A DNA stretch of 64,000 bases from a virus. The notes under the pieces were generated by a model, which saw only the letters and a program-made list of their open reading frames with translations, had not been told where the DNA came from and searched no databases. The stretch lies in the IMG/VR virus record IMGVR_UViG_3300023074_000001, positions 1 through 64,000 of that record. The stretch is one strand, 5' to 3'. Shown here piece after piece: positions 20,908 through 46,132 of the stretch (within the stretch, counting starts at the first letter, position 1; every line of letters begins with the position of its first letter). The position numbers and the translations under genes were made by a program.

Positions 20908-21258
20908 CATGGTAGTAAATACGAGTTCATGGATTTGCAGCAAGTGTAAAGCCCTTGGTGATTTTACTATAACTAAGGAGAGCACCTTTACATATTCTGC
21001 AAGGTGCAATTCCTGCGGTAAGTCCAACTGGTTTGCTAAATAAATCTCTTCTCATAAGAGAGGCCGAAGATGGTAGATTCAACCTGACACTTTCTTGATT
21101 AACAGTCAAGGAGGTGATATAAATGCCGGGACCGATGTCCGCACCTAACGGTAATAAGAAGCTAGTAACAGATGCTAAGCTTCGAGAAAGCTTGAGAGCC
21201 AAAAGCCAACTCAAGACAGGCAAAACTCAAAGTAAATAAGAGCAGAAATGCTCTTTTT

Positions 21259-21336
21259 GCACTATGGTAGTAGGTGGTCCTGCTGCACCTCTGCAAAAGG
21301 TGTTTATACGTTCCGGTCCGATTCCGGCATAGTGCT
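21259..21336 (+). tRNA. tRNA-Cys(GCA), divergent
   Basis: CACCT-CTGCAAA-AGGTG; GCACTATG/CATAGTGC acceptor; U73. Confidence 0.75.
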
Positions 21337-21516
21337 CATGAAGATGAAAAAAACTGTTATTAACGATGTTGTTAAAATGGGTATGGATCAAGAAAAAGAT
21401 TTAGCTAGGCGACTGCCGCAGCTTAGCGAAAAGAAATCTCACAAGTTATCGCCACCAGAAGACGGACACGAAAACTAATACCGATTATCCTAACATACTA
21501 ACGTTAGGATAAAGAC

Positions 21517-21882
21517 ATGGCTAAAACTATTCGTGTAGCTGAGGGACCGGTGACGAAAGTAACCGATGGCGATACGTTTGTTGTAGAATACCTCGACTTA
21601 GGTTGGGGTAACAGAGTGTATCCCTTAGATAAAACCAAACCAGGCTACTGTGCTATAAGGATTACTCTACCTGAAAACAAGTGGTACGACGCTCCTGAGA
21701 AAGCTGATAAAGTTCGTTGGAAAGCAGCAACAGATTATTTAAAAACATTGCTGACTCCAGGTACAGAAGTAGTTCTTACTTCTTATGGTTTATTTACTCT
21801 CGGTAGAACCTTGGCGTCTGTGACCTTGCCAGACGGAAGAGATGTTGCTACGCTCATGGTAGAGGCAGGACATACCAAATAA
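21517..21882 (+). CDS. thermonuclease (SNase-like)
   Basis: VTDGDT, DAPE, LGRTLASV, MVEAGH. Confidence 0.8.
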   Translation: MAKTIRVAEGPVTKVTDGDTFVVEYLDLGWGNRVYPLDKTKPGYCAIRITLPENKWYDAPEKADKVRWKAATDYLKTLLTPGTEVVLTSYGLFTLGRTLASVTLPDGRDVATLMVEAGHTK

Positions 21883-21960
21883 CAAAGCCAACCTCTGTTA
21901 GGTTTACGACGGTGCGATCTCTGAGCTGGTACACGATGAGGTTTTGTTATTTGGTGAGGG

Positions 21961-21996
21961 AAGACCCATGAAAATTCATGGGTCTTCTTCTTGTTT
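21961..21996 (+). terminator. intrinsic terminator
   Basis: GAAGACCCATGAA/TTCATGGGTCTTC hairpin followed by a T-rich tract. Confidence 0.7.
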
Positions 21997-22344
21997 GACA
22001 CCGAGGCTAGTATGTAGTAGGCTCATGGCATGGAAATCATCGTATGGATTATTTTTGGGGTAATCGCTACTATCCTCGTTACTCTCTTTGCGCACTTCGC
22101 TCTAGCACTTTCTTGGCTTGCTGCCTTTATTACAGCCTTGATTTTTGTGGTTGTAGGGGTGTGGGTAGCTAATGAAATTGGATAGAATGAGCGATAAGCA
22201 GTTAGCTGATTTTCTTAACCAAACCAAGTATGCTATCTCTCATTATACGTCTATGGAACGAGTCTATCGCCTTAACAAGGAAGCATCGATGGAAGACCTA
22301 GAAGAAATTATTCAAGTCATGAAGCAGAGAAAGGAGAGTAAGTA

Positions 22345-23004
22345 ATGCAAGTTTTTGAATATCATAAAATTCCAGGGCCGTTTAAGCGTGCAACTGAGGG
22401 AGTTAATAAGAACCAGGTCATTGCTTGGCAGTGGTCTAATCCTGAGCTGGAGTATCTAGCAGATGTGCCATGGATTTTTACAGAAAAGATTGATGGAACT
22501 AATATCCGCATCATCTGGGATGGGTATTCTGTCGAGGTACGTGGACGTACTGATCGCGCTAATCTTGCACCTGATCTGGTAAAGACTTTGTTTGCCATGT
22601 TTCCTGAGGAGTTGATGGAGCAGACTTTCGGGGCTAACCCGGCTATTTTGTTTGGTGAAGGCTATGGTCCAGGTATCCAAAAGGGCGGCGGCAACTATCG
22701 TTCAGATAAGAGTTTCATTCTTTTTGATGTGCATATCGGTGGTTGGTGGCTTATGCGAAACTCTGTAGAGGATATCGCTAAGTCTCTAGGAATCGATGTT
22801 GTACCTGTCGGAGCCTCCTGTACGCTTAGGGAAGCTATTAAAGATATGGCAGCTTTAGACTTCATTGACTCTATGGTTGCTGAGACTCCTATGAACATTG
22901 AAGGTATGGTAGGTACTCCTAAGATTCCCCTGTTCAATCGTAAGGGCGAACGAGTCATCGTGAAACTCAAGGGTTGCGATCTCTACGGACTTGAGGTAGG
23001 CTAA
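22345..23004 (+). CDS. ATP-dependent RNA ligase (Rnl2-like nucleotidyltransferase domain)
   Basis: Motif I EKIDGTN, FGEGYG, LFDV, EGMVG, VKLK. Confidence 0.85.
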   Translation: MQVFEYHKIPGPFKRATEGVNKNQVIAWQWSNPELEYLADVPWIFTEKIDGTNIRIIWDGYSVEVRGRTDRANLAPDLVKTLFAMFPEELMEQTFGANPAILFGEGYGPGIQKGGGNYRSDKSFILFDVHIGGWWLMRNSVEDIAKSLGIDVVPVGASCTLREAIKDMAALDFIDSMVAETPMNIEGMVGTPKIPLFNRKGERVIVKLKGCDLYGLEVG

Positions 23005-23820
23005 GCACATGGACGTACTAGAGGACATCTTTTTTTCTATTTTCATTGCTGCTCTTGCGGCTGGGCTTTTGGTAGGTGTGGCGCAGCTCTTTGAGGCGAC
23101 CGACCATAATACTTGCCACGAGCGTGGAGAACTTGCTAATGTGCAGGTAACCTATCGTAAGTGGAAGGGTTGCTATGTTAACCAGAATAACCTTTGGGTT
23201 CCTTATGACAACTGGAAGTACAACCGAGACCATGGGTTTGTGCAGAAATGATGGATGAAAGAATCTTTCTAAGTCTAGTACTGTTTCTAGCAGTAGTATG
23301 TGTTATTGCTGCTTTCGTCCTTCTCGACAATCAGCAAAAGCAGTTTGCAGACTCTTGCCACGCAAGGGGCGGCGCCGTACAGCACATCTATCGTAACGCT
23401 AACTGTGTCAGTACTGATGGTAAGCTGCTTGACACCTTCAGCAAGTAGTGTTAGGCTTCCTACATGACACGAGATGAGGCGCTAAGAGCAGCTGAGAATT
23501 GTTTGAACTATGTAACAACTGTTAGGTTGCCATCACATGATCATGAAGCTGGCAAGGCAATTGCCTTGATGGCTCAAGCTAAGGCCGAAGCAGCTAAAGC
23601 ATATATCGAACTAGCCAAGTTGCTTAGCTACTAAGGAGAGCACTATGAAGTTTGTTGTGGCTTGGGTGTTGTCGGCGCTATTTTTTCTAGCAATGTTTAA
23701 TTGGTATAGCACTAACAGCGATAAGTTTAATGAACGTTGCAGGCAGTATCAGGGTCATGTAGAGTCTAGTTTTATGAAGTACTCATGCGTTGATGCAGCA
23801 AATCAAGTGATCTTCGGCAC

Positions 23821-23849
23821 TTGACAAGCTAGCTGCGACGATGTAAAGT
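23821..23849 (+). promoter_or_regulatory. SigA-type promoter for tRNA operon
   Basis: TTGACA-17bp-TAAAGT. Confidence 0.75.
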
Positions 23850-23909
23850 AGAAGTTGTAAGCAGGAAGAAGTTGCGACATAGCGCACAACGGAATGCTTA
23901 CAACTCTAT

Positions 23910-23981
23910 GGGGGATTCATATACAGGTTATTATGCTGCTTTTGCAAGGCAGACAAAAGAGTTCGAGTCTCTTATCCTCCA
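23910..23981 (+). tRNA. tRNA-Ala(TGC)
   Basis: CTGCT-TTTGCAA-GGCAG; G3:U70 pair. Confidence 0.88.
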
Positions 23982-24218
23982 CGCAAGCAAGTATCGGGGT
24001 AACATTCGGTTACGCAGGGGGTTATAATATGCCCGGTTAAACTCCGGCCGAGAAAGCTTAAAACTTGTGATGACTATGAGCTCAATGGGGCGACATGTAC
24101 TGACCTGATAGCGGCAGCCGAGCCCGAACTGGACAGACTTGACAGGCGAAGCAGTCCTAAGTTATAGTTAGATCCTGCCAGAATTCAAGTCTTAGCTGAC
24201 TGGTAGTTCACAATTAAT

Positions 24219-24292
24219 GGGGTTGTAGCTTAGCGGCTAAAGCAGTTGTCTTACACACAACAGATTCGTAGGTTCGAGTCCTACCAGCCCTA
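24219..24292 (+). tRNA. tRNA-Val(TAC)
   Basis: GTTGT-CTTACAC-ACAAC. Confidence 0.92.
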
Positions 24293-24413
24293 CAAAGGAT
24301 AGTTGCAACTATTCTAGCAGCATTGGCGGTTCGAATCCGTAAGGCTAAACAATGTTGCGAGCATTAAAATGACATAGATTTAATTCGGCCGTACATGCTT
24401 CTATGTCAAGCTT

Positions 24414-24488
24414 GGGTCCGTAGTATTAATTGGTAAAACCCCCGCCTCTTAAGCGGTGAGAATGTCGGTTCGAATCCGACCGGACCCA
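24414..24488 (+). tRNA. tRNA-Lys(CTT)
   Basis: CCGC-CTCTTAA-GCGG. Confidence 0.9.
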
Positions 24489-24654
24489 CTTTAACAAAAT
24501 TCACAAGGAGTTGTTATGGCTGAAGCTAAGTGCAAGGCTTGTGGACATGCACGTAAATCACATTCTATAGTTGGTTGCCTTGATTCAGGAAGATGTACCT
24601 ATCAATGCACTGTAAAGTTTAATGATAAGAAAATGTTTGAGTAACTAAATATTT

Positions 24655-24725
24655 GCACCGTTAGCTGAGTGGTTTAGCTCCGTCCTCTTAAGTCGGAGAC
24701 GTCAGTTCGATTCTGACACGGTGTA
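24655..24725 (+). tRNA. tRNA-Lys(CTT)
   Basis: CTCTTAA loop; cloverleaf. Confidence 0.87.
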
Positions 24726-24857
24726 CGTTAGATGTTAATTCAGTAAATGAAGCGGGGCTTCTTGGTTGTTAGAGCCCGTGAAAGACTGTATCACGAAACC
24801 TTAGCGGGTGAAGTTTCCCAAGACGAACCAAGTGAGGGAAAGCATCTAGCACCACAT

Positions 24858-24929
24858 GCGCCGTTAGCTGAGATGGTTTAGCTGGGGACTTTTAATCCTT
24901 AGACGCGGGTTCGAGTCCTGCACGGCGTA
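24858..24929 (+). tRNA. tRNA-Lys(TTT)
   Basis: GGGGA-CTTTTAA-TCCTT. Confidence 0.9.
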
Positions 24930-25314: not shown

Positions 25315-25384
25315 AGCATGGTAGCCCAAATGGTAGAGGCAGAGCCCTGTGAGGGAAGTCTTGGTTCGAATCCAAGTCATGCAC
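25315..25384 (+). pseudogene. tRNA-like element with collapsed anticodon arm
   Basis: Canonical D arm and T arm CTTGG-TTCGAAT-CCAAG; anticodon arm reduced to CCC-TGTGA-GGG. Confidence 0.55.
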
Positions 25385-25538
25385 GTTTGGTTGTGAGTTT
25401 GCCTTTCGTCGGGAAGACGAAACGGAACTCTCGTACGATCAGGTCAGCCTAATGTGCCAGCATTAGGTGTAAGCGCTAGGGAACACCTAGTTAGCTTGGG
25501 TCATTCGTAATGGTAAAAGCAGGGCTGGCACCCTGTTA

Positions 25539-25607
25539 GTGTTGAGTAGCATTTGGATAATGCGCCTCCAGTTACGGGGGAGATACGGTTCAATTCCGCT
25601 CAATGCA
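25539..25607 (+). pseudogene. degenerate tRNA-like element
   Basis: GTGTTGAG/CTCAATGC stem, D arm, non-canonical anticodon loop, T loop TTCAATT. Confidence 0.5.
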
Positions 25608-25809
25608 CAAACCCAGGGACGCCTGGATTAGGTAATCGCTAGGTACCTTAACCTATTGTCTGGTAGACTTGAGACGCCTGACTAGCTATCAGGAATGTCA
25701 AAGAGGATTCAGACCGATTACTGTTTTTTACACAATACCAGATAGGGTAGGTAATACGGAATGTTCTCAACTTGAAAGGGTTGGTCGATTCTGGTAGAGT
25801 GTAATCAAT

Positions 25810-25878
25810 GCCCCTGCTATAGGATATAGACTCAGGTCTTCTAAACCAGATGAGAAGGTTCGAATCCTTCCAGGGGCG
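25810..25878 (+). tRNA. tRNA-Arg(TCT) with short D arm
   Basis: GCCCCTG/CAGGGGC acceptor; CTTCTAA loop. Confidence 0.82.
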
Positions 25879-26066
25879 CATTATGGTGGCAAAACGAAAA
25901 ACAACTACGACTGTTACTCTCAAGAAGGGTAACAAGACTCTCACAGCAAAGAGAGAAACAACAACAGAATATGACAGGAAGAGTAAGACCTGGAAGCAGA
26001 GTCAACACGATACTCTCATCAAAACTGAAGTGAAACCTTATTCTCCTAAACTTAGTAGGTAACTAA

Positions 26067-27736: not shown

Positions 27737-28953
27737 ACTCAGATCGTAGAGGGATAAGAGAGTCATTAGAGTCTGAAAAATTTCTTCTTGAGTTTGATAC
27801 CAACTCCGAGGATTTCATCAGAGGATTTGAATGTGGCGAAATATGGGCCTGTTTATCTGACAGAGTAGAGTATCTTCATTCTATTATTGTGACTTCTAAT
27901 GCCTTGATGGTGATGCGTATGGTAGACGCAGCAAATAAAAAATTTAATGCTCATTATACTTTCGATGCGCATGAGTTGACACAGGAGCATATTGAGCAAT
28001 TATTACTTGGTCCTGGTGAGTGGATGAGTGTTGTTATCAAGGATGAGTCACATGAGTAACGAAGAAATACCTCCCTGGCATACGCTTCCTGAAGAGGATA
28101 AGACAAAGGCAAAAGAACTGTATGCCGAACTAGACGAATTGACAGCACGCTATGAGAAATTGAGAGACGATGAGAATATTTCACCTGAAAAGAATTGAAG
28201 ATGAGACAGGAATCTCGGGAACAGGCTTGGTAACTGAGGGTGTTGAGTTTTCTGATGGTAGTTGTGCTATGCGTTGGATGACAGAAACTACCTCTACAGG
28301 ATTTTACAAAAACATAGATGATGTGGTACACATCCATGGGCACGGCGGTAAGACTGTCGTCGTCTGGGATTGACAGCTTAAGCTAATTCTGTTAGAGTAC
28401 GAGGCATGAGAGGAGCTGACATGAAACCTTATAAGCGCAAGGACACCCCTGAGGAGACTAGACGGCTCCTCGAACTTCGTAGATCTAATGCCGCAGGTAG
28501 ACATAAAAACAGGAAGAGATATGACAGAAAACGAGATCGCCGAATCCCCTCGGAGAACTAATATTACTGACAAAATCAGCAAAGACGACTTTAGGTTTCT
28601 CAGTTATATAGCTTCTTTCTTTTTAGGGTTCTTTATCCTAGTAGGAGTAATCTCTGGGTGGGCTGGACTTATTTATGTAGTATTTGGAATGCTTATGACT
28701 GTGGTTGTTGTTGCGACAGTCTATACTCTCTACAAAGCTGTTTCAGGATTGTCGGATCTCCTTTATGATTGGTTGGCAAAAGATGAGTAAGTTCAACGAT
28801 CCTAAGGCCAAGGTTCCTTCCAAGAAGAATAAGGCTTCCAAGGAAAAGACTACCGATGCTTATGTTGAAGCATTGAAGGCTGCACCATCTTGGTACAGGT
28901 CGGAAAAATAAATTGACATGCGTGTATCAACTCTGGTAGACTTGGTGCATCGC

Positions 28954-29699: not shown

Positions 29700-29704
29700 C
29701 TCAT

Positions 29705-31505: not shown

Positions 31506-31507
31506 CT

Positions 31508-31832: not shown

Positions 31833-31857
31833 CATTATGACAAACAAAGGAAGCACT

Positions 31858-32611: not shown

Positions 32612-32640
32612 TTGACACCGTAAGATAGCTAGTGTAAAGT
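32612..32640 (+). promoter_or_regulatory. SigA-type promoter for the tRNA-Glu / Y RNA / rsr unit
   Basis: TTGACA-17bp-TAAAGT. Confidence 0.75.
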
Positions 32641-32709: not shown

Positions 32710-32782
32710 GGTCTCATCGTCTAGTGGACAAGGACGCAACCCTCTCAAGGTTGAAACGAGAGTTCAATTCTCTCTGGGACTA
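32710..32782 (+). tRNA. tRNA-Glu(CTC)
   Basis: CAACC-CTCTCAA-GGTTG. Confidence 0.92.
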
Positions 32783-32786
32783 CAAA

Positions 32787-32872
32787 GTTGAGCCGAATAG
32801 GTATTGGTTATCTAATTATATGTAAATTAACCGCCCCCTTGGGGCATCTCCAATCCTAAATCCATGTTCAAC
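32787..32872 (+). ncRNA. Y RNA-like element 1 (no tRNA module)
   Basis: GTTGAGC-CGAA-stem-TTATC...CAT-GTTCAAC; upstream of rsr. Confidence 0.7.
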
Positions 32873-32883
32873 CTTTAATTTTA

Positions 32884-32949
32884 GTAGAGTCGGAGTTAGT
32901 GGTTTATCTTACTTACAAATAAAAATACCACTAACAAAACATATTCTAC
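32884..32949 (+). ncRNA. Y RNA-like element 2 (minimal)
   Basis: GTAGAGT-CGGA-GTTAGTGGT-TTATC...ACCACTAAC...CAT-ATTCTAC. Confidence 0.7.
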
Positions 32950-32956
32950 GTATTTT

Positions 32957-33029
32957 GCCGCCGTAGCTTAGAGGACAAAGCAGCTGCACGACATGCAGAA
33001 GAACGTGGGTTCAACTCCTACCGGCAGCA
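32957..33029 (+). tRNA. tRNA-Val(GAC), atypical anticodon loop
   Basis: CTGC-ACGACAT-GCAG; no U33. Confidence 0.7.
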
Positions 33030-33034
33030 CAAGC

Positions 33035-33157
33035 AGTGAGTCGAACAGAAAACGATTATCTTACTATTATCAGGAAACTGCTGGGTTCAACTCCCAGGAC
33101 ATCCACGAGGGTGTTGCAGGCTTGCCTTAAACTCGTCTTCTACCCTTTATATTCACT
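33035..33157 (+). ncRNA. YrlA-like Y RNA with permuted tRNA module
   Basis: AGTGAGT-CGAA...T arm CTGGG-TTCAACT-CCCAG, closed acceptor-like GACATCC-ACGA-GGGTGTT...TAT-ATTCACT. Confidence 0.8.
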
Positions 33158-33519
33158 ACTTACTTTCATGGAGGCTTTAACTTGTCTTTCAAGGAAACCA
33201 AGGCACTTAAGGCTGCTGCTCAGAAGCTTGCTGCGGCGAGAAAAGAATTGTTTGCGGCGCAAAAAGCAAAGTCTAGAGATGCAGCTCTAATCAAAGAGCT
33301 TGAGAAGCAAGTAGCTAATCTCACCTATTTCCATAGTCATCTTTTTTACGATGCTAATAAGGATGCGAGACCGTAATTTATGGCAGACAACAAAGAAACA
33401 CGTGCAAAAGTAAGTAAAGCAGCTAATAGCTTAACACGAGCTAAAGAAGCTAAGCTAGATCAATCTGATGCTCGTGAAAAGCTTAGAAAAGCTATTGCTG
33501 AGTACGACAAGTAATACTT

Positions 33520-33640
33520 ATTGGCGAGTCGTAGTTGAATGGTTAACAGTCCAAACCGCTTGCGTGGGTTCGATTCCCACTTCGTAGTTTAATGGCAGAA
33601 CAGCGGTCATCTTCCGTTTAACGATCCTATATTCGCCAAT
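33520..33640 (+). ncRNA. YrlA-like Y RNA with T arm then D arm and no acceptor stem
   Basis: ATTGGCGAGT-CGTA...GTGGG-TTCGATT-CCCAC-TTCG-TAGTTTAATGGCAGAAC...TAT-ATTCGCCAAT. Confidence 0.8.
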
Positions 33641-33643
33641 CAT

Positions 33644-33732
33644 GCTCTTGCTAGGGACCAACGAAGTCGCGTTCGTTGAGCGTAGACCGGCGGGTTTATG
33701 ATGGGAAGGTTCGAATCCTTCCAAGGGCACCA
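33644..33732 (+). ncRNA. tRNA-like RNA (acceptor + T arm + CCA, remodelled interior)
   Basis: GCTCTTG/CAAGGGC-A-CCA; GAAGG-TTCGAAT-CCTTC; two internal hairpins. Confidence 0.65.
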
Positions 33733-33779
33733 TTCGTAATATTCAATTTTCATTGAGTCGAAAGAGAGGCTATAAGCCC

Positions 33780-35381
33780 ATGTCAGCACTAAAGAAGTAT
33801 TCAACTAATTCATTCTCCCAGACTGAGAAGGCTCGTACCGATCAGGTGCAGAACTCAGCCGGTGGCTATGTTTTCAAGGTAAACGATCTCAAGCGTCTTG
33901 AGCGATTCCTTATCATCGGAACTGATGGTGGAACCTACTATGTCGGTGAGCGCGACCTTACTAAGGCTAACGTTGATTTTATTCGTGAGATGATTGCTAA
34001 GTCTCCTGAGACTGTTCTACACACCGTTGTAGATGTTTCAGATAAGGGTCGTGCATATCGTAACGACGCAGCTATCTTTGTGCTTGCGCTTATGCTTAAC
34101 GATGCTCCTGCTGATTTCAAGGCTCAGATAGTTGAGGCTGTACCGGCTGTTGCTCGTATCGCTACTCACGTATTTCAGCTTGCTGCTTACATCGAGAACC
34201 TTGGTGGTTGGGGCCGTGCAAAGCGTCGTGCTATTGCTAAGTGGTTTGAGTCAAAGTCAGCGGATCAGCTTGCATACCAGGCTGTAAAGTACCGTCAGCG
34301 TGATGGTTGGACCATGAAGGATCTTATGCGTCTGAGCCACGTTAAGGGTGTAGATGAGCGTGTAGGCGGGTTCATTCTTGGTCGTGAGACTAACCCTGGT
34401 GGGGACATCATTGATGGTTTCCAGACCATGCAGCTTGCGCTTTCGCCTTCTGAGGTAATTTCTACTCTTGGGCGTTACCCTAATCTGCCTTGGGAGACTA
34501 TTCCTACTCAGTTCCTCAAGGATGCTGAGGTTTGGAAGACTCTATTTGCGAATGGTCAGCTTAAGGGGCAGGCTCTAGTACGTAACATCACTAGGCTTTC
34601 GCGTATTGGCGCATTCAACGATATGGTATTCGCTCGTGAGGTAGCTGACAAGCTTGTTGATTCTGACATGATTGCGAAGACTCGTCTTCACCCAATCCAG
34701 TATCTTCTGGCTTCTGTTACTCACCGTACGGGGCAGATGGATCGTAATGGTTATGGTAGTTTCTATGGTGCAGCTCGTAAGCGTGACTGGGAGATCGTTC
34801 CAGTAATTGCTGATGCGCTGGATGCAGGATTCTACCAGTCATTTAAGTCTATCGTTCCGGCAAACAAGCGTACTATGCTTGGCCTGGATATTTCAGGTTC
34901 TATGGCCGCTACTGCTCTAGGAATTGATTTGAGCTGTGCTCAGGTTTCTGCTGCTATGGCTATGGTCACAGCTCGTACTGAGCCATACACCATGATTCGT
35001 GGATTCTCTACGCAGTTCAAGGATCTAGGCATTACTCCTAATCAGGATTTTGCTACAGTTATGAGTAAGATTAGTAACCAGAACTTTGGTGGTACTGACT
35101 GCGCACAACCTATGATTTGGGCAATGGAGAACAAGGTTGAAGTTGATACCTTTGCTGTCTTTACCGACTCAGAAACTTGGGCTGGTAGGACGCAGCCATT
35201 CCAAGCATTGAAGCGATACCATCAGAAGATGGGTATTGATGCTAAGCTGGCAGTTTTCGGTGTTGCTAGCACGGAGTTCACTATTGCAGATCCTAGTGAT
35301 TCTGCGGGAATGATGGACTTCTGCGGTTTTGATTCCAACGCAGCTAGTGTGTTTGCTGACTTCTCAGCAGGTCGTCTGTAA
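33780..35381 (+). CDS. rsr: Ro60/Rsr (TROVE + vWA) RNA-binding protein
   Basis: NSAGGYVF, RFLIIGTDGGTYY, GWGRAKRRAI, KYRQRDGW, vWA DISGSM, GGTDCAQP, TDSETW. Confidence 0.96.
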   Translation: MSALKKYSTNSFSQTEKARTDQVQNSAGGYVFKVNDLKRLERFLIIGTDGGTYYVGERDLTKANVDFIREMIAKSPETVLHTVVDVSDKGRAYRNDAAIFVLALMLNDAPADFKAQIVEAVPAVARIATHVFQLAAYIENLGGWGRAKRRAIAKWFESKSADQLAYQAVKYRQRDGWTMKDLMRLSHVKGVDERVGGFILGRETNPGGDIIDGFQTMQLALSPSEVISTLGRYPNLPWETIPTQFLKDAEVWKTLFANGQLKGQALVRNITRLSRIGAFNDMVFAREVADKLVDSDMIAKTRLHPIQYLLASVTHRTGQMDRNGYGSFYGAARKRDWEIVPVIADALDAGFYQSFKSIVPANKRTMLGLDISGSMAATALGIDLSCAQVSAAMAMVTARTEPYTMIRGFSTQFKDLGITPNQDFATVMSKISNQNFGGTDCAQPMIWAMENKVEVDTFAVFTDSETWAGRTQPFQALKRYHQKMGIDAKLAVFGVASTEFTIADPSDSAGMMDFCGFDSNAASVFADFSAGRL

Positions 35382-35394
35382 GGTTTGACAGTAT

Positions 35395-35443
35395 AAGTAG
35401 CGAGTGGTAGAGTTTAGCTCAGTAGCCACTCGCTACTTTTTTA
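35395..35443 (+). terminator. intrinsic terminator after rsr, overlapping the next promoter
   Basis: AAGTAGCGAGTGG/CCACTCGCTACTT followed by a T tract. Confidence 0.75.
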
Positions 35444-36041
35444 TCCTACTCATAGATTGAAGATTGATTTGAAGCTTCTCATTGTTCTACTAATTCTTGC
35501 TGCACTAGGCTATCTGGTGTATCGAGGTTATAAGAAGTATCTTGCTCCATTCAAGAAGCCTAAGCAAAGTATTACTGATTCCTATATTGGAGGTTCCGTG
35601 ACTCAAGTTTCTGGTGTTAAGGATTACGTTCGTCGTCCTACTGAGAACTTCGTTAAGCCGACCTTTCCTGCGCCAAGGCCGAAGCCTTCTTCACCGACAA
35701 ATCCTGGCCCGAAGCGAAGCTCGCAAGCAGAGCGTGAGACTTATGATGTTTATCAGACAGATGAAAACTTTGAGTATCCTTCTTCTCCAGACACAAGTAA
35801 TGCGTACGTCTGGGAAGATAGCTCTACTAGTCGCAGTACTGAATCTACGTCGTATTACTCGCCTCCTGCTGAGGCAAGCCCGCCAAGTTCCAGCACCCCA
35901 GATACACCTTCTACGTCCAGTAGTTCTGACTACTGAAGGCTTGACAGCTTAGCGAGACTAGGCTAGGATTAACCAAGTAAGCCGGTTGTGGTACTTGCGA
36001 ATAACAGCCCGTAAGGATAAAAGTAATTTGGCTGTTAGCCT

Positions 36042-36116
36042 GGAGTAGTCGTCTAACAGGACTAGGACACCAGACTTTCAATCTGGGTAATGCGGGTTCG
36101 AATCCCGTCTACTCTA
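36042..36116 (+). tRNA. tRNA-Glu(TTC)
   Basis: CCAGA-CTTTCAA-TCTGG. Confidence 0.92.
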
Positions 36117-36514
36117 CTTTAAATTTTATTGTATAATGGAGATTTGCTATGTCTACTCAAGTACTAGAGAGGCCAGTAGAAACATCAGATTTTAATAAGT
36201 TTTGTCATGTGGTTTGTGCGTGCAGTCCTAAGCTTTCATTGTGCGGGGCATACAAGCCAATACAATGTGGCCTGGCTATTGTTGATAGCAGAGCCATAAA
36301 AACTTGTCCTAAGTGCAAGAAAGATTTCTGTCAGGATTGCATAGATCTTTTGCCATACGAATGTGTACGCTGTGGTCGCTAGACGTCGTAACTTCCCCAA
36401 AGGAAATTTTGCACCTCTCAAGCCTTGCACATGCGAAACACTACACAATCACAGCTTTGCAGCTGGATGCCGGTGTAAAAGACATGCGCAAGAGACTAAA
36501 TGAGGTGTTATTAG

Positions 36515-36937
36515 GTGTTTAGAATCCTTATCACAGGGTCACGAACCTGGGATGATTACGATACCATCTGCAAAGTAATTGTTGATACTATCGTAGCTTA
36601 CGTTAAAGATAATCCTCACCTGAATAAAGGCCCTATTGATTGGGTTACTATTGTCCATGGAGATTGTCCTAAGGGTGCTGATTACTTAGCTGATATGTTT
36701 GCCTCTCAAGTACTTAATTGCCAGGTCGAGCGATATCCTGCTGATTGGGCAACCTTTGGCAAGAGGGCTGGTTTTGTGAGAAACAGACGTCTGGTAGACT
36801 CGATGCCTGATGTGTGTCTAGCCTTTATTCGAGATAAATCCAAGGGTGCTACTATGTGCAGAGACCTAGCTAAGGCTAAAGGCATTCCTACAGAAACCTA
36901 CATCTACGATCCTGAGAAAGTAGCAACCAATGGCTAA
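36515..36937 (+). CDS. SLOG/YspA-like (DUF2493) protein
   Basis: ILITGSR, VHGDCPKGAD, ADW..GKRAGFVRN, SKGA. Confidence 0.85.
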   Translation: MFRILITGSRTWDDYDTICKVIVDTIVAYVKDNPHLNKGPIDWVTIVHGDCPKGADYLADMFASQVLNCQVERYPADWATFGKRAGFVRNRRLVDSMPDVCLAFIRDKSKGATMCRDLAKAKGIPTETYIYDPEKVATNG

Positions 36938-37456
36938 GAGCAAAGATCCTCAGTGTGGAACCTGTAGTAGCTACCTCAACAAAGCTGGCAACTGTTTGAA
37001 TTGTCATCCTACGGGTCGCGCTAGAAAGCCAGGGAATCCTGGACACGGTAATAGCAGGGATAAGAAGGAAAGGCGACCACCAGCACGATGACACAAGAGC
37101 AATTACTTGATTGTTTACATATTCTTCTAGGTAAGTTGCATCTGTATCAAGCTGGTGAAAAGGTTCTAACTCTAGGAGAATGGAATCTTATCTGCGATCT
37201 ATCTGATTGGTATGCAGATAAAGGTAAGTTGATCGCTGAAGGCAGACGCTTGACAGCTATGCAGGTTGTGCTAGACTAGAGAACATAGGGGATGGGGTTT
37301 GCTGGTAGCTACCTCCCAAAATCTGTATGAAACCAGCACTAGGGTATCCGCGATCGGCAGGGCACCGGTAAAACGTCCTGGCAGGTTTGACACCTGCAAT
37401 ATCCACTTTATCAGAATGATCAACTGATGAATGCACTAGGCTTAATTACCCTAGTG

Positions 37457-37575
37457 AGCAACGTAGTTTAAAGGAAAAACAGAGAAACCTTAGTAGGGAA
37501 ACAAGTAGGCATTGCGCTGAACGAAGTAGCCGAACAGTAAGTATTAGATGGTAGGGTCGAGTCTACCCGTTGCGC
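37457..37575 (+). ncRNA. tRNA-like RNA with anticodon arm replaced by a long insert
   Basis: GCAACG/CGTTGC acceptor, D-like TAGTTTAAAGGAAAAAC, T arm GGTAG/CTACC. Confidence 0.5.
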
Positions 37576-38026
37576 ATGGCAGATAGAGTTTGTGATTCTT
37601 GTGACTGGGGTCAGTGCTTACAGTGTCGTAAGGGTAGCTGTCGATGTAAAAATTGTGGTGGAGGTCGTCCGTCGCTGGACCCCCGTAGACGCCGATAAAT
37701 CCTTTAACGACTTATTGTTAGGAGATTTATCATGATCAGTGTAAGTTTTGATCCTGTCCTTGACGGTGAGGGCAACCTTATCGGCCAGAGACTAACTATT
37801 TATTTCAACAACAAGATAGTTAATTCTCTGGATTATCCACCTGAGGCTGTTATGACTCAGGACGACCTAGATAATTATATTGTTGGAAAGCTGTCGGGCA
37901 TTCTGTCTTGACACAGTGGGGCTAGATGATGTAAGGTATTAAGCATAAGACGGCCGGTGGGATGCGCCATACGGTAGCTTCGGGTAGGAAACTAGCTCGC
38001 ATGAAGGCTAAAAACAACGCATACCT

Positions 38027-38099
38027 CGGGCACGAGGGAGACGGTTAACCCGGCTGGTTTGGAACCATCAGACACCCAGTTCGACTCTGGGGTGCCCGA
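38027..38099 (+). tRNA. tRNA-Pro(TGG)
   Basis: CGGGCAC/GTGCCCG-A acceptor; TTTGGAA loop. Confidence 0.85.
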
Positions 38100-38157
38100 C
38101 AAGTAAGAGTATGGCATAGTCCCTTAATTGTCCCATAGTGGTGCTCTTACCGTAATT

Positions 38158-38231
38158 GTGGCTATAGCTTAATGGTCTAGAGCGACAGGTTGTGTCCCTG
38201 TTAGGTGTCCGTTCGAATCGGACTAGTCACC
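38158..38231 (+). tRNA. tRNA-His(GTG)
   Basis: ACAGG-TTGTGTC-CCTGT; C73; no encoded G-1. Confidence 0.88.
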
Positions 38232-38279
38232 GAATACAGAAAGTGTAAGTAACATAAAAATTTACTTACACTTTCTCAT

Positions 38280-38351
38280 GGAGTTCGTAGCTCAATGGTA
38301 GAGCGCTGGGTTGTGGTCCCAGATACGGGGGTTCAATTCCCCTCGATCTCC
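38280..38351 (+). tRNA. tRNA-His(GTG) with encoded G-1
   Basis: CTGGG-TTGTGGT-CCCAG; G-1:C73. Confidence 0.9.
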
Positions 38352-38840
38352 CTACGACAATTTAAGGAAAACTATGATTCAGGCTACACTTTACAAGTGT
38401 CCTCGGTGTGGTAATGTTCTTCCTCGAAAATGCCCCTGCTGATACTATAAACTTAAATGACAACGGCGTCATCAATTTCTGAAGTAAAGGATGTTGATGG
38501 CGAAATATATTTGTATGGATTGTGGAACGCCTCACGATGGTGAACACAAATGTAAAAAGAAATAATTGCTCCCTAGGGTCTTTCGAGACTCCTAGGGATT
38601 TTTTATATAAGGAGAGTAGCACTATGAAACCCATTCATATATGGGATAAGATTATTTATTGGTGGGTAACTACATCAGAAGCTTGGAGATTCACTATTCT
38701 GATGCTTCTGGTATTCTGGGCCATGATGTTTTTCCTCGTAATTTAGGAGCAGTTATGGGTCACAGTGAGCCTAAAGTCTGTCCTGTCTGTGGAACTGTTA
38801 TGACAGGATCAGTATGCCCTTACAAAGGTAAGAGACACGA

Positions 38841-42106: not shown

Positions 42107-42901
42107 ATGACTGAAAAAGACACTAGATTTAAGGTTTCTTGGAGTAGTTTACAAAGACATGAGTATTGTAAGGCTAAGCATTTTCTTGTATTGGAGGGTC
42201 ATACGGTTCCTGGTAAGGACGCAAGAAACTTCCTTGCCGGTAATGTTATTGACTCTGTGCAAAAAGCTTGGCTTGACAATCCTGTAGGTAGTATGGATGC
42301 TATGGTTGATGATCATATGGAAATGGCTATTGCCGAATCTGAAATCAAGGGTAGCATCAAGTGGCGCAATAAGAATGATAAAAAGAATATCAATACTTCC
42401 TGTCATACGGCTGCTGTACAACTTCAACCTATTTTGGAAGCTAGAGTATTGCCTTATGATTATGAGCCTGCTAAGAGGTTCTATACTCCCGTCAAGATTC
42501 GTAAGCCTGATGGTGAAGTATTAGAGATTATTCTTCGAGGTGAGTTCGACTTATTGGTAAAGGATAATTTTGGCAAATTCATAGTATGGGATTTGAAGAC
42601 TACAGCAGACAATGACTATTGGAAAAAAACATTAGGACAACTGGTGTTTTATGATTTAGCCATCTACAGTATGTTTGGTGAGCCTCCTGTAAAGACAGGA
42701 TTTATTCAGCCGCTCTGTGATGAACAAGTCAAGGAGTTCTATTTCGATGACTCTCATAGAGCTGAAATGTGGGGGAGAATTAATTCTATGATGCAGGCTT
42801 TGTGGGTAGAGGATTACAGCCCAAAAGTTGATAACACAGGCTGCTCATTCTGTGAGGTTGCCCACTCCTGCCCTAAGTTCAAGAGGAAGTTATTTAGTTG
42901 A
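42107..42901 (+). CDS. PD-(D/E)XK Cas4/RecB-like exonuclease
   Basis: SWSSL..YC, GEFDLL, DLKT, QLVFY, C..C.....CP. Confidence 0.85.
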   Translation: MTEKDTRFKVSWSSLQRHEYCKAKHFLVLEGHTVPGKDARNFLAGNVIDSVQKAWLDNPVGSMDAMVDDHMEMAIAESEIKGSIKWRNKNDKKNINTSCHTAAVQLQPILEARVLPYDYEPAKRFYTPVKIRKPDGEVLEIILRGEFDLLVKDNFGKFIVWDLKTTADNDYWKKTLGQLVFYDLAIYSMFGEPPVKTGFIQPLCDEQVKEFYFDDSHRAEMWGRINSMMQALWVEDYSPKVDNTGCSFCEVAHSCPKFKRKLFS

Positions 42902-43073
42902 GCAAGCCTGGATACTATGATAAAACTCGTATGTTGGAATTCATGCAAAAAGAAGTAAATTGTTTAAGCTCTAGACTAATAGAATTGCCTCAGTCTACAG
43001 AAAGATTAGCGCTGCAATATTGTGTAGGTGCATTGCAGACAAGCATGTACAGAATTCAACATGGAAGTGATGA

Positions 43074-43322
43074 ATGAGCAATACAGACGCTATTATCGAT
43101 AATCTTAAGGCTCGCAGAAATGCAGCTCAACTAGCTAGGGTACGAGCTGAGACATTAAAAGAAACAGCTCAGGCATCGTACGATGCTGCTATAGCTAGTT
43201 TAAAGTCTGAGTTTGCTGTTGACACCATCGAGGATGCTCGTGCTAGACTTAGTGATCTACAACGTCAATTCGAATCTCAGCTGGAAGACATTACAGCAAA
43301 ATTAGATGCAATGGGGTGTTAA
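43074..43322 (+). CDS. small coiled-coil protein
   Basis: Heptad-rich 82 aa ORF. Confidence 0.6.
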   Translation: MSNTDAIIDNLKARRNAAQLARVRAETLKETAQASYDAAIASLKSEFAVDTIEDARARLSDLQRQFESQLEDITAKLDAMGC

Positions 43323-44574
43323 AGTGGATCAGACAGGCGGAGTTGCAGAGCTAGATATTCTTAGTTGGCTTGACAGTGAAGAATCCGTTAAGCCCAAAAT
43401 AGCAGTTAGATCTTCAGCTCATGCTAAAAGTCTCACTACGGATAACACTGTTAAAATGGGTTTTGAGGTACAGCGAGAGGTATTGCTGAGTTTACTGAAC
43501 AAGGCTATTTCTGCTGTACCTAGTAATACTATGATTCCTGTGCTCAATAACTTCAAGTGCGCAGTAGGCAACGATAAGTTAGTTGTTGTTGGTAGCTCGA
43601 AGAGTATGTCTATTGCAGTAACTACGGATCAGGTTAGTATTAGTACTGAAGGCACACAGGTATTTCCTGCGAAAACATTCCTGAATATTGTTAAAGAATG
43701 TAATCCAGGGTCTACGGTATTTATAGAAGTTACTGATGTTGGTGCAGTCATCGTAGCTGGAAGCTTTAGTGTAGAAATAGCTTTAGCTAAAGCTGATGGA
43801 TACCCCGCACTTGAAGATGTTTCTGCATTAGAGTTTCACCAGGTCAACAGATTGCAATTTATAGATGCTATAAACATTGTGAAATATGCTCTACCTAGTA
43901 GAGAGTTTTCTGGTCAGAGTTCTATGAAGATGATCAACATCAAGGGTGGTAAGTTCACCGCCTGCGACGGATCACGATTTCAGCAGAGTAGGATTCATGG
44001 GTTCAAGTTGCACATGCAGCTACCAGCTGATAGTATCAGCATACTGAACAAGCTGCTAGGTGGCTCTGACCTGGAGAACCTGGAAATTGGTGAGGTTACT
44101 AAGAAATTAATCTTCAAACTCGGCACTACAGTATTCTATGTCAATAAGCTTGATGATCCATATCCTAATGTTGAACAGCTCTGGCTTAGACCTGCTCTCA
44201 CTAACGATCAGGAATTGCTTGTGGATCGTCAGGAATTGATTACAGCAATCAAGCAGGTAAGAACTACAGCTGATACTAATTCTTCTGCATTAGGTCTTCA
44301 AGTAGAGGCCGAATCTATGAGAATAGTAACTAAGGATACTAATAACTCAGCTTCTGCTACTATAGCCTGTAAATGGTCGGGTAAATCTAGAAACATTGTT
44401 GTCAATTACCTGCATCTTGCAGAAATGTTAAAGGCTTATCCCTCAACTGAGTGTAGATTTATGTTAGGTGAGGATACACAGAAGCATAAGTCACCTATTC
44501 TACTGCGAGATGATGATACGATGGCGATTGCAACAATCAGTCAGCTACTTGCGTACCAGCCAGGTTTGCTGTAG
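43306..44574 (+). CDS. dnaN: DNA polymerase III beta-type sliding clamp
   Basis: IPVLNNF, ADGYP, TACDGSRF, DDPYPNV, VNYLHL; three-domain size. Confidence 0.88.
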   Translation: MQWGVKVDQTGGVAELDILSWLDSEESVKPKIAVRSSAHAKSLTTDNTVKMGFEVQREVLLSLLNKAISAVPSNTMIPVLNNFKCAVGNDKLVVVGSSKSMSIAVTTDQVSISTEGTQVFPAKTFLNIVKECNPGSTVFIEVTDVGAVIVAGSFSVEIALAKADGYPALEDVSALEFHQVNRLQFIDAINIVKYALPSREFSGQSSMKMINIKGGKFTACDGSRFQQSRIHGFKLHMQLPADSISILNKLLGGSDLENLEIGEVTKKLIFKLGTTVFYVNKLDDPYPNVEQLWLRPALTNDQELLVDRQELITAIKQVRTTADTNSSALGLQVEAESMRIVTKDTNNSASATIACKWSGKSRNIVVNYLHLAEMLKAYPSTECRFMLGEDTQKHKSPILLRDDDTMAIATISQLLAYQPGLL

Positions 44575-44621
44575 GGTAGTGCTCATGACGGCACAAAGTC
44601 GTCTTAACGAAAGGGTTTTCT

Positions 44622-44861
44622 ATGAAGTCTGCTAAGTTTGTTGCGGTAGCAGTTGCTGCTGTGTTAAGTTTTGGTAGTATGGTCGCCTGTGGTTCTGGAA
44701 ATTCAGAGCCTGTTGACGCCAATATTGATACTGGTGTAGTGATTGACAAGTCCAGTAAGCGTGTTACTATTCTTGAAGACGACGGCGAGCGAGACACCCA
44801 CAAGTTCCGAAACTCTAAGAAGTGTCTTGTTGGTCAGCGTTGGCCTGATTGCAAGAAGTAA
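44622..44861 (+). CDS. small lipoprotein
   Basis: Signal peptide with MVAC lipobox. Confidence 0.6.
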   Translation: MKSAKFVAVAVAAVLSFGSMVACGSGNSEPVDANIDTGVVIDKSSKRVTILEDDGERDTHKFRNSKKCLVGQRWPDCKK

Positions 44862-45202
44862 TGGCTAAGTCAAAGGAAACAGACAATATCTCTGATGGTT
44901 ATCATACTTTCGGAGAATTATACGATCATCGTCGTGCATTGACACGAGCCTTGATGTTGTCAAATACTAAAATTTCTTGGCGTTCAAGGCACCACCACCC
45001 AGATGATGCGCCTATGTTTGAGGGTGGGTATTTTATCGTAGGAATGCAGTTGCCTACGGGACAAATCAGTTACCACTACAAGCTTACTCACTGGAATGAT
45101 TTTGACGGAGTACACACCATCGAGCACGCCCCTAAGTACGATGGACACACTCCACGAGAAACAGTGACCAGACTACTTGACTGGGTAATCAGAAAGATGT
45201 AG
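44861..45202 (+). CDS. conserved phage protein (SDGYHTF / YDGH motif)
   Basis: SDGYHTFGELYDHR, GQISYH, YDGHT. Confidence 0.65.
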   Translation: MAKSKETDNISDGYHTFGELYDHRRALTRALMLSNTKISWRSRHHHPDDAPMFEGGYFIVGMQLPTGQISYHYKLTHWNDFDGVHTIEHAPKYDGHTPRETVTRLLDWVIRKM

Positions 45203-45235
45203 ACTAGTACTACAGCCAGGGAAACTTGGCTTCAT

Positions 45236-45319
45236 GTGTTAGAGGCAACTGTTGGTTGGTTGCAACGGTCTGTAAAATCGTTCCGCGAGGCGTCGGGGGT
45301 TCAATTCCCTCCTAACACA
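45236..45319 (+). tRNA. tRNA-Tyr(GTA)
   Basis: ACGGT-CTGTAAA-ATCGT; long variable arm. Confidence 0.9.
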
Positions 45320-46132
45320 CATACATTAACTTAATACAAAGGTAGAGTCACTTATAGGGCAGGCTGTTGAGAGAAGCCGGTAATTCCGTAGAGATCCCAG
45401 GAGGGTGTAAGACCTTCGCTCTAACCTATTCAAATATTAAGGATTAAACAAGTGGCAAAAGTTGGAGATAACATGTCCGCAGCTGAGCGTAAAGCTGCAC
45501 AGGAAAAGGCTAAACCATTACGCAAAGTATCAAAACCTAAAGTAATATATCCAGATAGAGTAGCTAACGCTCAATCTAGAGAAAAGAAGTAAGTCAAGGC
45601 ACATGGAAACATGTGCCTTTTTCATTTCAGGAGAGTTATCTTGACTAAGAAGGACCCTAACGCAAGTCGCGGTGAAAGGCGTCACTGCCAAAGCCCAACT
45701 TGTGGAAATGTATTTATCGCTAACAACAGCGGGCAGATTTATTGTTCGATCAAGTGTCAACGTGCGGCAGCATATCGAAAAAGGAAGTAACCCTTATGTT
45801 TTTCTGTGATTTTTGTGCCAATAAAAGAAATTGGCCTGAGAGTATGTCTAAGTCTTATGGAGTTTGTGAAATTTGTGATATAACTGCTAGGTGTAATGAC
45901 GTACCCTCATCAGCTTTACCTATGCCTGCTAAGGTTATTGAACCCGAATATGTAGGAAGGCATCGTAAGATAGAAGATATAGCAGCAGATGTCGTTAAGT
46001 CTCGCAAGGATATGCTTGAAAAACTAAAAGACTAATTATGAAAAAGCAGCTGCGCGAACTTCCTTGACACAGCCCCCGGCAGCATGATAGGGTAGCTGTA
46101 ATAAACAAACACAGAGAGGACGATCGGTACAG

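Follow-up and report, generated by a model that had tools for sequence, protein, structure and literature searches.

tRNA-like RNAs with replaced interiors in the tRNA and Y RNA region of an uncultivated phage genome

The locus and its relatives

The IMG/VR virus record IMGVR_UViG_3300023074_000001 is a complete single-contig genome of 135,654 bp with direct terminal repeats, and its first 64 kb (64,000 nucleotides, referred to here as the window; G+C ~44%) hold tRNA genes, Y RNAs and very short open reading frames (ORFs). Between positions 20931 and 45427, an original prediction had described six elements, here c1 to c6, as a single family of tRNA-scaffolded RNAs that keep the acceptor and T arms of a tRNA and replace its interior. 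The set is heterogeneous. Three of its members, c3, c4 and c5, are genuine selected tRNA-derived non-coding RNAs. In the reading preferred here, which has about an even chance of being right, the acceptor/T-arm minihelix would be kept as a processing and stabilising handle and the interiors would have separate functions.

The host of the phage is probably actinobacterial. By identity of the Ro60 ortholog Rsr, the closest cultured phages are Streptomyces phages (53-59%), followed by mycobacteriophages (~38%), and relatives closer than these are uncultivated contigs only. Two of them, G001 and G002 (the locus of the latter is L010), share 70% Rsr identity and synteny over the tRNA region with the window, whose genome is G000, and 18 more metagenome loci were found; a Ro homolog is carried by 367 phage records. 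ARAGORN with default settings called 33 tRNAs in the whole genome, 23 of them within the window. An RNA ligase domain lies at 22345-23004, and no phage-encoded CCA-adding enzyme was found. In addition, the window was searched with our own acceptor-plus-T-arm scan, which was run without a shuffle control.

None of c1-c6 was called by ARAGORN default in the window, and none reached the gathering score of 29 bits of the Rfam tRNA model (RF00005): c2 scored 27 bits, c3 scored 13.2 bits through its T arm only, and c1, c4, c5 and c6 gave no match at E <= 10 in the window. The 7-nt anticodon loop on a 5-bp stem is absent from c3, c4 and c5. The six elements could not be aligned with one another, and a covariance model of c4 found one copy per genome and otherwise tRNAs only, with no match at c1, c2, c3, c5 or c6, which rules out the proposed single family. 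Taken element by element, the observation behind the prediction is partly confirmed and the interpretation placed on it partly supported.

The anticodon-less RNA c4

c4 (37342-37406, + strand) is an anticodon-less tRNA-like RNA and has the predicted architecture, namely a 6-bp acceptor stem, a T-like hairpin that covaries, and a capped helix (CAGNGC/GTNCTG) replacing the anticodon arm, with a total length of 64-70 nt across homologs. Single-copy homologs in six other genomes (seven including the window) scored 67-87 bits on the model built from them, and the next-best matches, at 21 bits or less, were ordinary tRNAs, including six to seven tRNA-Ala(tgc) as well as tRNA-Tyr and others. The search covered 318 kb and four further records (Streptomyces phage Jada, G003, G004 and G005), and in these four records the model matched tRNAs only. 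In the alignment of seven sequences and 17 pairs, 99.2% of cells were paired versus 38-44% with the partners slid, seven pairs showed compensatory change, and the covariation score was reached by none of 500 shuffles; the single-sequence fold gave z = -1.9.

The conserved positions of c4 are those of alanine acceptance. G1-C72 is present in all six sequences that have the letter, G2-C71 and G3.U70 in all seven, and A73 and C74 are invariant, while pair 4:69 occurs in three forms, with G4-C69 in 2/7. In the part of PMC9976931 used here, bacterial alanine identity is attributed to A73, G2-C71 and G3.U70 as major and to G4-C69 and G20 as minor determinants. The invariant bases of c4 coincide with the major determinants in 7/7 homologs, and without a D loop the G20 position is unassignable. 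Among the window acceptor stems listed by our own scan, G3.T70 was found in tRNA-Ala and c4 only. The middle helix is conserved, carries an invariant G.U (column 22:40) and is extended to a TTCG-closed cap in 5/7 homologs and to an 11-nt loop in 2/7, leaving no anticodon loop; position 56 of the T loop is T in 5/7, a drift expected in an RNA without a D loop to pair with. Having full alanine acceptor identity and no anticodon, c4 is probably a substrate of the host alanyl-tRNA synthetase (AlaRS).

tmRNA, too, is marked by an acceptor stem of the alanine type (G3.U70, A73) combined with a T arm, and all seven c4 sequences have both. The tmRNA model gave a best match of 18.2 bits in the whole genome, on tRNA T arms, versus a threshold of 47, and the permuted tmRNA families gave no match in the window. 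Neither an ORF nor a known RNA adjoins either end of c4. A second c4-like element of 44 nt was seen at L017:5388-5431, in which a 13-nt linker joins an acceptor stem bearing G3.T70 to a canonical T arm and A73-C is present; it is located just upstream of the c5 of that contig, ~500 nt from the first c4.

c5 and the c4-c5 unit

c5 (37457-37575, + strand) is a tRNA-shaped RNA in which, as predicted, an acceptor stem (with an A1.G72 mismatch), a D arm and a T arm were all found around a long insert, the anticodon stem being replaced. Homologs occur in seven other loci (eight including the window), and that in L001 scored 20.9 bits with the Rfam tRNA model. The alignment of the eight homologs showed compensatory change in 10/15 pairs, and 89% of cells were paired versus 40-51% when slid; the single-sequence fold gave z = -0.1. 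Thus both c4 and c5 pass the covariation check that the original prediction had proposed (c6 has one such pair, and c1, c2 and c3 have no sequence orthologs to compare), and the relatives carry the same non-canonical RNAs at these two loci rather than the ordinary tRNAs that would speak for pseudogenes.

The bulged-G (sarcin-ricin or loop E) motif consists of an AGUA strand opposite a GAA strand. At the start of the anticodon stem, all eight c5 sequences have G27-Y (GC in five, GT in three) and N28-N (AT in five, GC in two, TG in one), followed by an invariant GAA opposite AGTA, so that the bulged-G sequence signature with standard flanking pairs is found in 8/8, with the flanking pair covarying. 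The insert measures 48-75 nt and contains repeated GAAC..AGTAG words, for which no consensus fold was obtained by RNAalifold or from single-sequence folds. These features suggest that c5 probably presents a conserved AGUA/GAA platform and purine-rich repeats to a protein partner. c5 was also considered as a mini-tmRNA and rejected, as the tag frames after TAGTA give unrelated peptides and no stop precedes the T arm in L014 and L002 (by eye).

Downstream, a 40-codon ORF (37576-37698, + strand) has its ATG at the first base after c5, counted as N73 plus C. The start codon occupies this place in 6/8 homologs, and the other two have a Shine-Dalgarno leader. Upstream of c4, on the same strand, lie a promoter-like site (37250-37277; TTGACA-16-TAGACT with an extended TG, a consensus match only) just ahead of the c4-c5 unit, and a conserved hairpin GCTGGT...ACCAGC (37301-37337) whose loop holds ACCTCCC, an anti-Shine-Dalgarno-like word; the hairpin was recognized by eye and is also present in c4-bearing relatives. 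Between c4 and c5 (37407-37456, + strand), two covarying hairpins and a conserved ATGCAC...GTGAG linker were seen by eye in eight loci. The order promoter-like site, ACCTCCC hairpin, c4, two covarying hairpins, c5 and ORF is conserved, and in each of the 7-8 genomes with c4 and c5 the two lie ~2 kb downstream of rsr. A blastn search of the unit with distant settings against 50,697 phage records gave no match. Among tRNA-like RNAs, c4 and c5 count as new variants, and their conservation is demonstrated directly from the alignments.

c3, the Y RNA array and rsr

c3 (33644-33732, + strand) agrees with its original description: all seven acceptor pairs form (GCTCTTG/CAAGGGC), the T arm is canonical (GAAGG-TTCGAAT-CCTTC), ACCA is encoded, the non-tRNA interior consists of two hairpins, and the element ends 20 nt before rsr. 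No sequence-level ortholog was found by blastn in the relatives. Its T arm and 3' acceptor strand closely resemble those of a tRNA-Arg(tct)-like element at 25810-25879 and of a 49-56 nt 'mini' element in L014. In relatives, truncated tRNA-likes of ~49-125 nt overall recur beside Y RNAs; their acceptor and T arm persist, and their interiors are unrelated to that of c3 and to one another. The conservation of c3 is therefore demonstrated at class level only, where the predicted retention of the acceptor and T arms stands, and since the interior is free to vary, the class probably represents a handle only.

Directly upstream of c3, at 32784-33640, four Y RNAs absent from the original prediction are encoded; Y RNAs are a known kind of tRNA mimic and partner of Ro. 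The array is preceded by a promoter-like site (32612-32640, + strand; TTGACA-17-TAAAGT, a match of a consensus scan only) and opens with tRNA-Glu(ctc) at 32710-32783, on the same strand as all that follows. Y RNA 1 (32784-32876) starts at the next base; it runs from 5' GTTGAGCCGAAT..GGTTATCT to 3' ..ATGTTCAAC, has a terminal stem without a tRNA-like domain, and shares its motif pattern with the Y RNAs of 10 other loci. Y RNA 2 (32880-32952) has 5' GTAGAGTCGGAG..GGTTTATCTT and 3' ACATATTCTAC, and is separated by tRNA-Val(gac) (32957-33030) from Y RNA 3 (33031-33160), which has 5' CAGTGAGTCGAAC..GATTATCTT, an internal T arm CTGGG-TTCAACT-CCCAG and 3' TATATTCACTAC. Y RNA 4 (33517-33640) is YrlA-like, with the terminal stem TTGGCGA/TCGCCAA. 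The array leads to rsr (33753-35381), encoding a Ro60 ortholog of 542 aa (Pfam TROVE 1.8e-35, vWA_Ro60 1.6e-60), after which a terminator-like site is located at 35421-35437.

All four Y RNAs have in common a terminal stem, a 5' G(A/G)G(T/C)CG..GGTTATCT block and a 3' ACAT(A/G)TTC block. The same features were found upstream of rsr in 10 other loci, giving 32 distinct RNAs in which stem pairs 3-5 occur in three to six forms. The GNCGAAN0-1G motif is one base off in each of the four (GCCGAATA in Y1, GTCGGAG in Y2, GTCGAACA in Y3 and GTCGTAG in Y4), and exact GTCGAAG is present in the Y4 orthologs of L014, L018, L019 and L023. By comparison, the two ends of each of c3, c4 and c5 pair as a tRNA acceptor stem, not as the Ro-motif terminal stem, and the GGTTATCT and ACATATTC blocks are absent from them.

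In Y4 (fold z = -2.5), only 2-3 nt separate the T arm from the D arm and the acceptor-like stem-loop has been lost, whereas this stem-loop is kept between the two arms in its YrlA-type orthologs L019:332-467 and L023:1908-2045. The terminal stem covaries. Against the Rfam YrlA model (RF02553), Y4 scored 17.4 bits as a partial match to the T-arm/D-arm core, far below the gathering score of 69 bits; the best relative, L002:2887-3003, scored 29.8 bits over the full length. Y4 ends 113 nt before rsr on the same strand; for YrlA, a same-strand Ro60 ortholog no more than 4 kb away is expected. In the portion of Chen et al. 2014 (PMC4201824) drawn on here, YrlA-like RNAs beside Ro are reported from 254 bacteria and 22 phages, and the YrlA and YrlB of M. 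smegmatis arise from one precursor upstream of rsr, YrlA being cut by RNase P and gaining CCA. Y1-Y4 thus belong to an already known class. A blastn search of Y4 together with c3 against cultured phages returned only a T-arm match to a Bacillus phage tRNA.

The junctions in this array are tight. No spacer separates Y1 from tRNA-Glu or Y3 from tRNA-Val, and c3 follows Y4 by 3 nt; likewise, in the relatives L004, L014, L019, L022, L023 and L026 the Y RNAs begin a few nucleotides from a tRNA or a truncated tRNA-like. The Y RNAs are apparently punctuated by tRNA-Glu, tRNA-Val and c3, in one operon with rsr.

Two observations were made in Streptomyces phage Jada (L037, MZ820094). At 2587-2850, two unannotated Y RNAs precede the annotated Ro gene by ~600 nt, and at ~7345-7421 an unannotated, D-arm-poor tRNA-Arg(tct)-like element is followed at the next base after its 3' end by the GTG start of the annotated CDS 111.

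c1, c2 and c6

c1 (20931-21026) lies in its entirety inside a 44-codon ORF (20909-21043, + strand) with two CxxC motifs, whose ATG is at +1 after tRNA-Thr(ggt). Its fold is stable (z = -2.7); the proposed T arm is bulged, with the loop TGCAATT, and a better hairpin, GCACCTT/AAGGTGC, competes with it. No homolog of c1 was detected by blastn in the relatives, and the description of c1 as a tRNA-scaffolded RNA was abandoned in favour of the ORF. The ORF itself had no homolog by blastp-short against the ORFs of all loci or by a homologous-protein search (lengths of 24-77 aa only), and G002 (L010) has a 36-codon CxxC..CxxC ORF at +1 after its own tRNA-Thr(ggt). Three features favour coding, namely the start at +1, the ORF length and the pair of CxxC motifs, and c1 is most likely protein-coding.

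c2 (25315-25384, + strand) is a tRNA-derived element with a 6/7 acceptor stem, intact D and T arms and, as predicted, a collapsed anticodon arm, in which the canonical-register loop CTGTGAG is closed by only 2/5 stem pairs (by eye); its fold gave z = -0.4. No ortholog was found in the relatives. It adjoins a conserved non-coding block, and in G002 a canonical tRNA-Lys adjoins the same block. c2 is possibly either a retained handle or a pseudogene, being compatible with both. The block itself (25385-25610, ~230 nt) is conserved on the reverse strand of L010 (~7340-7110), contains covarying hairpins and has no Rfam match; its last part is a tRNA-like element (25539-25608) with covarying stems and an 'anticodon' loop that reads AGTTACG here and GTCATAC in G002.

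The core of c6 (45356-45427, + strand) is a cloverleaf-like element 36 nt downstream of tRNA-Tyr, conserved in three genomes; in G001 and G002 it also comes after tRNA-Tyr and is followed by intrinsic terminators. An exact-pattern scan of viral contigs found it in G001 and G002 only. The predicted element was real in this sense, but its consensus closing stem starts at 45356 (AGGGCAGGC), not 45341. Besides the closing stem, the fold has an inner arm, which ends in a hairpin resembling a T arm (its loop is TTCGATT in L009), and a 3' hairpin whose loop of 8 nt is not a T loop. Only one compensatory pair was seen in three sequences, and c6 is possibly a fourth genuine tRNA-derived RNA.

Start codons adjoining tRNAs

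The start codon after c5 is one case of a wider arrangement. Among 85 ARAGORN tRNAs of G000, G001 and G002 (the whole genome G000 and loci L007-L010), 23 are followed at +1 by ATG or GTG with at least 25 open codons, versus a background of 551/29000 positions (1.9%). In these cases the start codon directly follows the tRNA 3' end (N73 plus C), as for the window ORFs at 20259, 20909, 24931, 29026, 30884 and 46697, and the same was found after c5 and three other tRNA-likes. For instance, the window has a 57-aa ORF at +1 after tRNA-Lys, and its homolog in L010 occupies the +1 position behind tRNA-Arg(tct). Since the bases upstream of such starts are those of the acceptor strand, they leave no room for a Shine-Dalgarno sequence, and the junctions would imply leaderless or 1-nt-leader mRNAs generated by tRNA 3' processing. 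A literature search on phage tRNA-like families and tRNA-linked leaderless ORFs returned nothing specific, which is not proof of absence; as far as that search shows, tRNA-to-start-codon junctions have not been described for phages.

Several further tRNAs and tRNA-likes were missed by ARAGORN default. An 80-nt tRNA-Cys(GCA)-like element (21258-21337) with an oversized D region, the T loop TCCGATT and a +1 ATG ORF is conserved in G001 and G002, where the G002 copy is called as tRNA-Cys. Other such elements lie in the window at 20646-20718 (Rfam tRNA, 40.7 bits), 25810-25879 (tRNA, 30.4 bits) and 47207-47297 (tRNA-Sec model, 42.8 bits), and in the genome at 67355-67424, which was detected by our own scan only; a start codon follows three of these four at +1 or +3. 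The tRNA-like element at 19781-19856, absent from the original prediction, has a 7/7 acceptor, a canonical T arm and a rearranged interior retaining the loop CTACGAA (ACG); the corresponding position in G001 holds an ordinary tRNA-Arg(acg), which makes this another case of kept ends and a changed interior. Perfect TTGACA hexamers followed after 16-18 nt by a TAGAGT/TAGACT-like hexamer, often with an extended TG, were noted at 28370, 28913, 32612, 35385, 35941, 37250 and 44743, for example, always on the + strand and ahead of tRNA or small RNA arrays.

Interpretation

The acceptor/T-arm minihelix is the part of a tRNA that is read by RNase P, by RNase Z or 3' exonucleases, and by the CCA-adding enzyme. 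Under the handle reading, the arrays on the plus strand, with their tRNAs, Y RNAs and very short ORFs, would be transcribed as long precursors, host tRNA enzymes would cut them at tRNAs and tRNA-likes, and the acceptor/T-arm half would be retained for cutting, CCA addition and stability. Cleavage on the 5' side of a handle would set the 3' end of the upstream RNA, which for c3 would be the 3' end of Y RNA 4, and cleavage on the 3' side would set the 5' end of the downstream RNA, which for c5 would be a leaderless mRNA starting at AUG. The replaced interiors would carry element-specific functions, putatively alanine charging in c4 and a protein-binding platform in c5. By its sequence features, c5 fits an mRNA-releasing handle plus a conserved platform, while position does not account for c4. 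Among the functions proposed originally, processing signals fit best. The proposed selective retention of the acceptor and T arms, as opposed to decay, holds for c4 and c5, with their covariation and the invariant identity bases, and for the c3 class, and is not supported for c1 and c2.

Several points weigh against this reading. Promoter-like matches overall numbered 34 versus 35.9 in shuffles, showing no excess, and a run search with window 33400-38400 retrieved four DNA metagenome runs, one of which is probably the source of the sequence, and zero RNA runs. A pure handle would not need the conserved interior of c5, and the conserved middle helix of c4 with its invariant G.U points to a function of its own; as no ORF or known RNA adjoins c4, a handle explains it poorly. 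The predicted alanine charging of c4 is deduced from identity bases alone, and the minor determinant G4-C69 is present in 2/7. For c2 and c3 individually, selection appears unproven since they have no sequence orthologs. Finally, an encoded CCA inhibits RNase Z; as c3 encodes CCA, its 3' side may stay uncut, and the handle model would then apply to its 5' side only.

A more far-reaching form of the proposal is advanced tentatively and regarded as unlikely in its entirety. It would combine mitochondrion-like tRNA punctuation, in which host RNase P and RNase Z cut promoter-driven precursors at tRNAs and reduced tRNA handles and so release Y RNAs and leaderless mRNAs, with a c4 that evolved from tRNA-Ala as an RNA charged by the host AlaRS and working off decoding, for example in interference with ribosome rescue, as a tmRNA-like domain lacking the message, or as an alanine donor.

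That c3, c4 and c5 are instead extra Rsr-bound RNAs, serving as Y-like tethers or quality-control substrates whose tRNA shape would attract effectors that bind tRNA, as has been proposed for YrlA, is a lesser possibility. c3 between Y4 and rsr occupies the place of YrlB in M. smegmatis, described in the part of PMC4201824 used here as Rsr-bound and T-arm-bearing, and c4 and c5 remain near rsr wherever they occur. Near-matches to GNCGAAN0-1G exist in c3 (AACGAAG) and c5 (AACGAAG in the window, ATCGAACG in L014, ATCGAAG in L023); however, these are short stretches without the first G, at positions that are not conserved. The terminal stem and the GGTTATCT and ACATATTC blocks common to the 32 tabulated Y-like RNAs are missing from all three elements, the c3-class interiors are unconserved, and c4 and c5 apparently have their own promoter-like site and are lacking in phages with Ro that are more distant, the complete genomes of G003 and Streptomyces phage Jada among them. 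A role as Ro substrates or partners, which was among the original suggestions, is plausible by position only.

For c4, a separate reading is that of a charged effector, an anticodon-less alanine acceptor resembling a tmRNA-like domain without a message, which once alanylated would block or divert ribosome rescue or donate alanine non-ribosomally. We consider it rather doubtful. The full identity set is invariant while neighbouring pairs covary, the TTCG-closed helix takes the place of the anticodon arm, and position 56 has drifted as expected without a D loop; moreover, Francklyn and Schimmel reportedly found in 1989 that AlaRS charges anticodon-less minihelices. Conversely, no tmRNA match exceeded 18 bits, no tag frame is present, no SmpB was found in the phage genome, and the identity bases may have been inherited from a tRNA-Ala ancestor and kept for their fit to RNase P or the CCA enzyme.

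Decay and coding overlap, by which the elements would be tRNA pseudogenes or chance folds without function, is improbable for the set, and its standing differs between elements. It suits c2, which has no ortholog, a broken anticodon stem and 27 bits, with an ordinary tRNA-Lys at the corresponding G002 junction, although its place, next to a conserved block that has a canonical tRNA beside it in G002, is also what would be expected of a retained handle. It suits c1 within its CxxC ORF at +1 after tRNA-Thr, like 22 other tRNA-ORF junctions, even though that ORF has no detectable homolog among the ORFs of all loci or by homologous-protein search, and it suits c6 with its single compensatory pair in three sequences. 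For c4 and c5 it is rejected: they show compensatory changes and invariant positions that are not Watson-Crick, and 7-8 genomes, whose Rsr identity falls as low as 66-76%, carry them in the same non-canonical form.

The least probable reading, that acceptor/T-arm mimics soak up host toxins that hit tRNA 3' ends, acceptor stems or the elbow, draws on the heavy investment of the phage in tRNA biology (33 tRNAs, the RNA ligase and Ro) and on the retention of exactly the portion such enzymes see, but no toxin or defence partner was identified, one copy each per genome is weak for titration unless expression is very high, the place of the c3 class beside Y RNAs and the +1 start codon of c5 are left unexplained, and the originally suggested anticodon nucleases are excluded as targets because these RNAs have no anticodon loop.

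If the handle reading is true, the tRNA genes of large phages would organise RNA processing beyond codon supply, setting the ends of Ro-associated Y RNAs and creating leaderless mRNAs for many tiny ORFs. It would also explain the persistence of degenerate tRNA shapes, the 'broken' tRNAs of annotators, in phage tRNA clusters. c4 offers a directly testable viral RNA apparently kept for alanine identity without decoding, and c5 a compact tRNA-scaffolded display of a motif with the bulged-G sequence signature. With its four Y RNAs, the apparent operon provides a compact system for asking about the role of Ro and Y RNAs in infection by Ro-carrying actinobacteriophages.

Comparison with known systems

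The closest known relatives of Y1-Y4 are the YrlA-type Y RNAs. Y1-Y4 resemble them in lying on the same strand less than 1 kb upstream of a Ro60 ortholog, several per locus, in a terminal stem with a GNCGAA-like 5' motif, and in T- and D-arm mimics in Y4 and partly in Y3; co-processing with tRNA-like features, a trait of M. smegmatis, would be a further likeness. They differ in that Y4 falls short of the family threshold (17.4 vs 69 bits) and has lost the acceptor-like stem-loop, and in that four Y RNAs stand in tandem, punctuated by real tRNAs. The likeness covers Y1-Y4 and not c3-c6. The topology of c3-c5 is in fact opposite to that of YrlA, with open acceptor ends and the anticodon side closed or replaced.

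c4 shares the alanine bases, the T arm and the lack of an anticodon with the tRNA-Ala minihelix and with the tRNA-like domain of tmRNA, and, as in the latter, a helix leaves the core at the place of the anticodon stem. Different from tmRNA, c4 has no message, pseudoknots or tag frame, measures 64-70 nt and does not match the tmRNA model, and its role as an alanine acceptor is predicted. The platform of c5 is like the bulged-G motif in its AGTA opposite GAA with Watson-Crick or wobble flanks, a likeness of sequence signature alone; that motif is known from rRNA and other large RNAs, whereas c5 would carry it at the anticodon-stem position of a tRNA-shaped RNA.

Phage T4 encodes the 'species 1 and 2' RNAs, small stable RNAs of its tRNA cluster that have tRNA-like termini, are processed by host enzymes and are of unknown function. 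By description only, they are similar to the present elements as small RNAs with tRNA-like termini among phage tRNA genes, and they differ in having no known link to Ro or to +1 ORFs. The proposed punctuation has its counterpart in animal mitochondria, where tRNAs punctuate polycistronic transcripts, and in the tRNA-like 3'-end processing exemplified by mascRNA. Alike in the phage, a tRNA or tRNA-like abuts the next RNA without a spacer, so that tRNA enzymes would define the ends of that RNA, and degenerate tRNA shapes suffice. The phage arrangement, known from sequence alone, differs from both in belonging to a virus of a probable actinobacterial host and in its predicted products, which include Y RNAs and leaderless ORFs.

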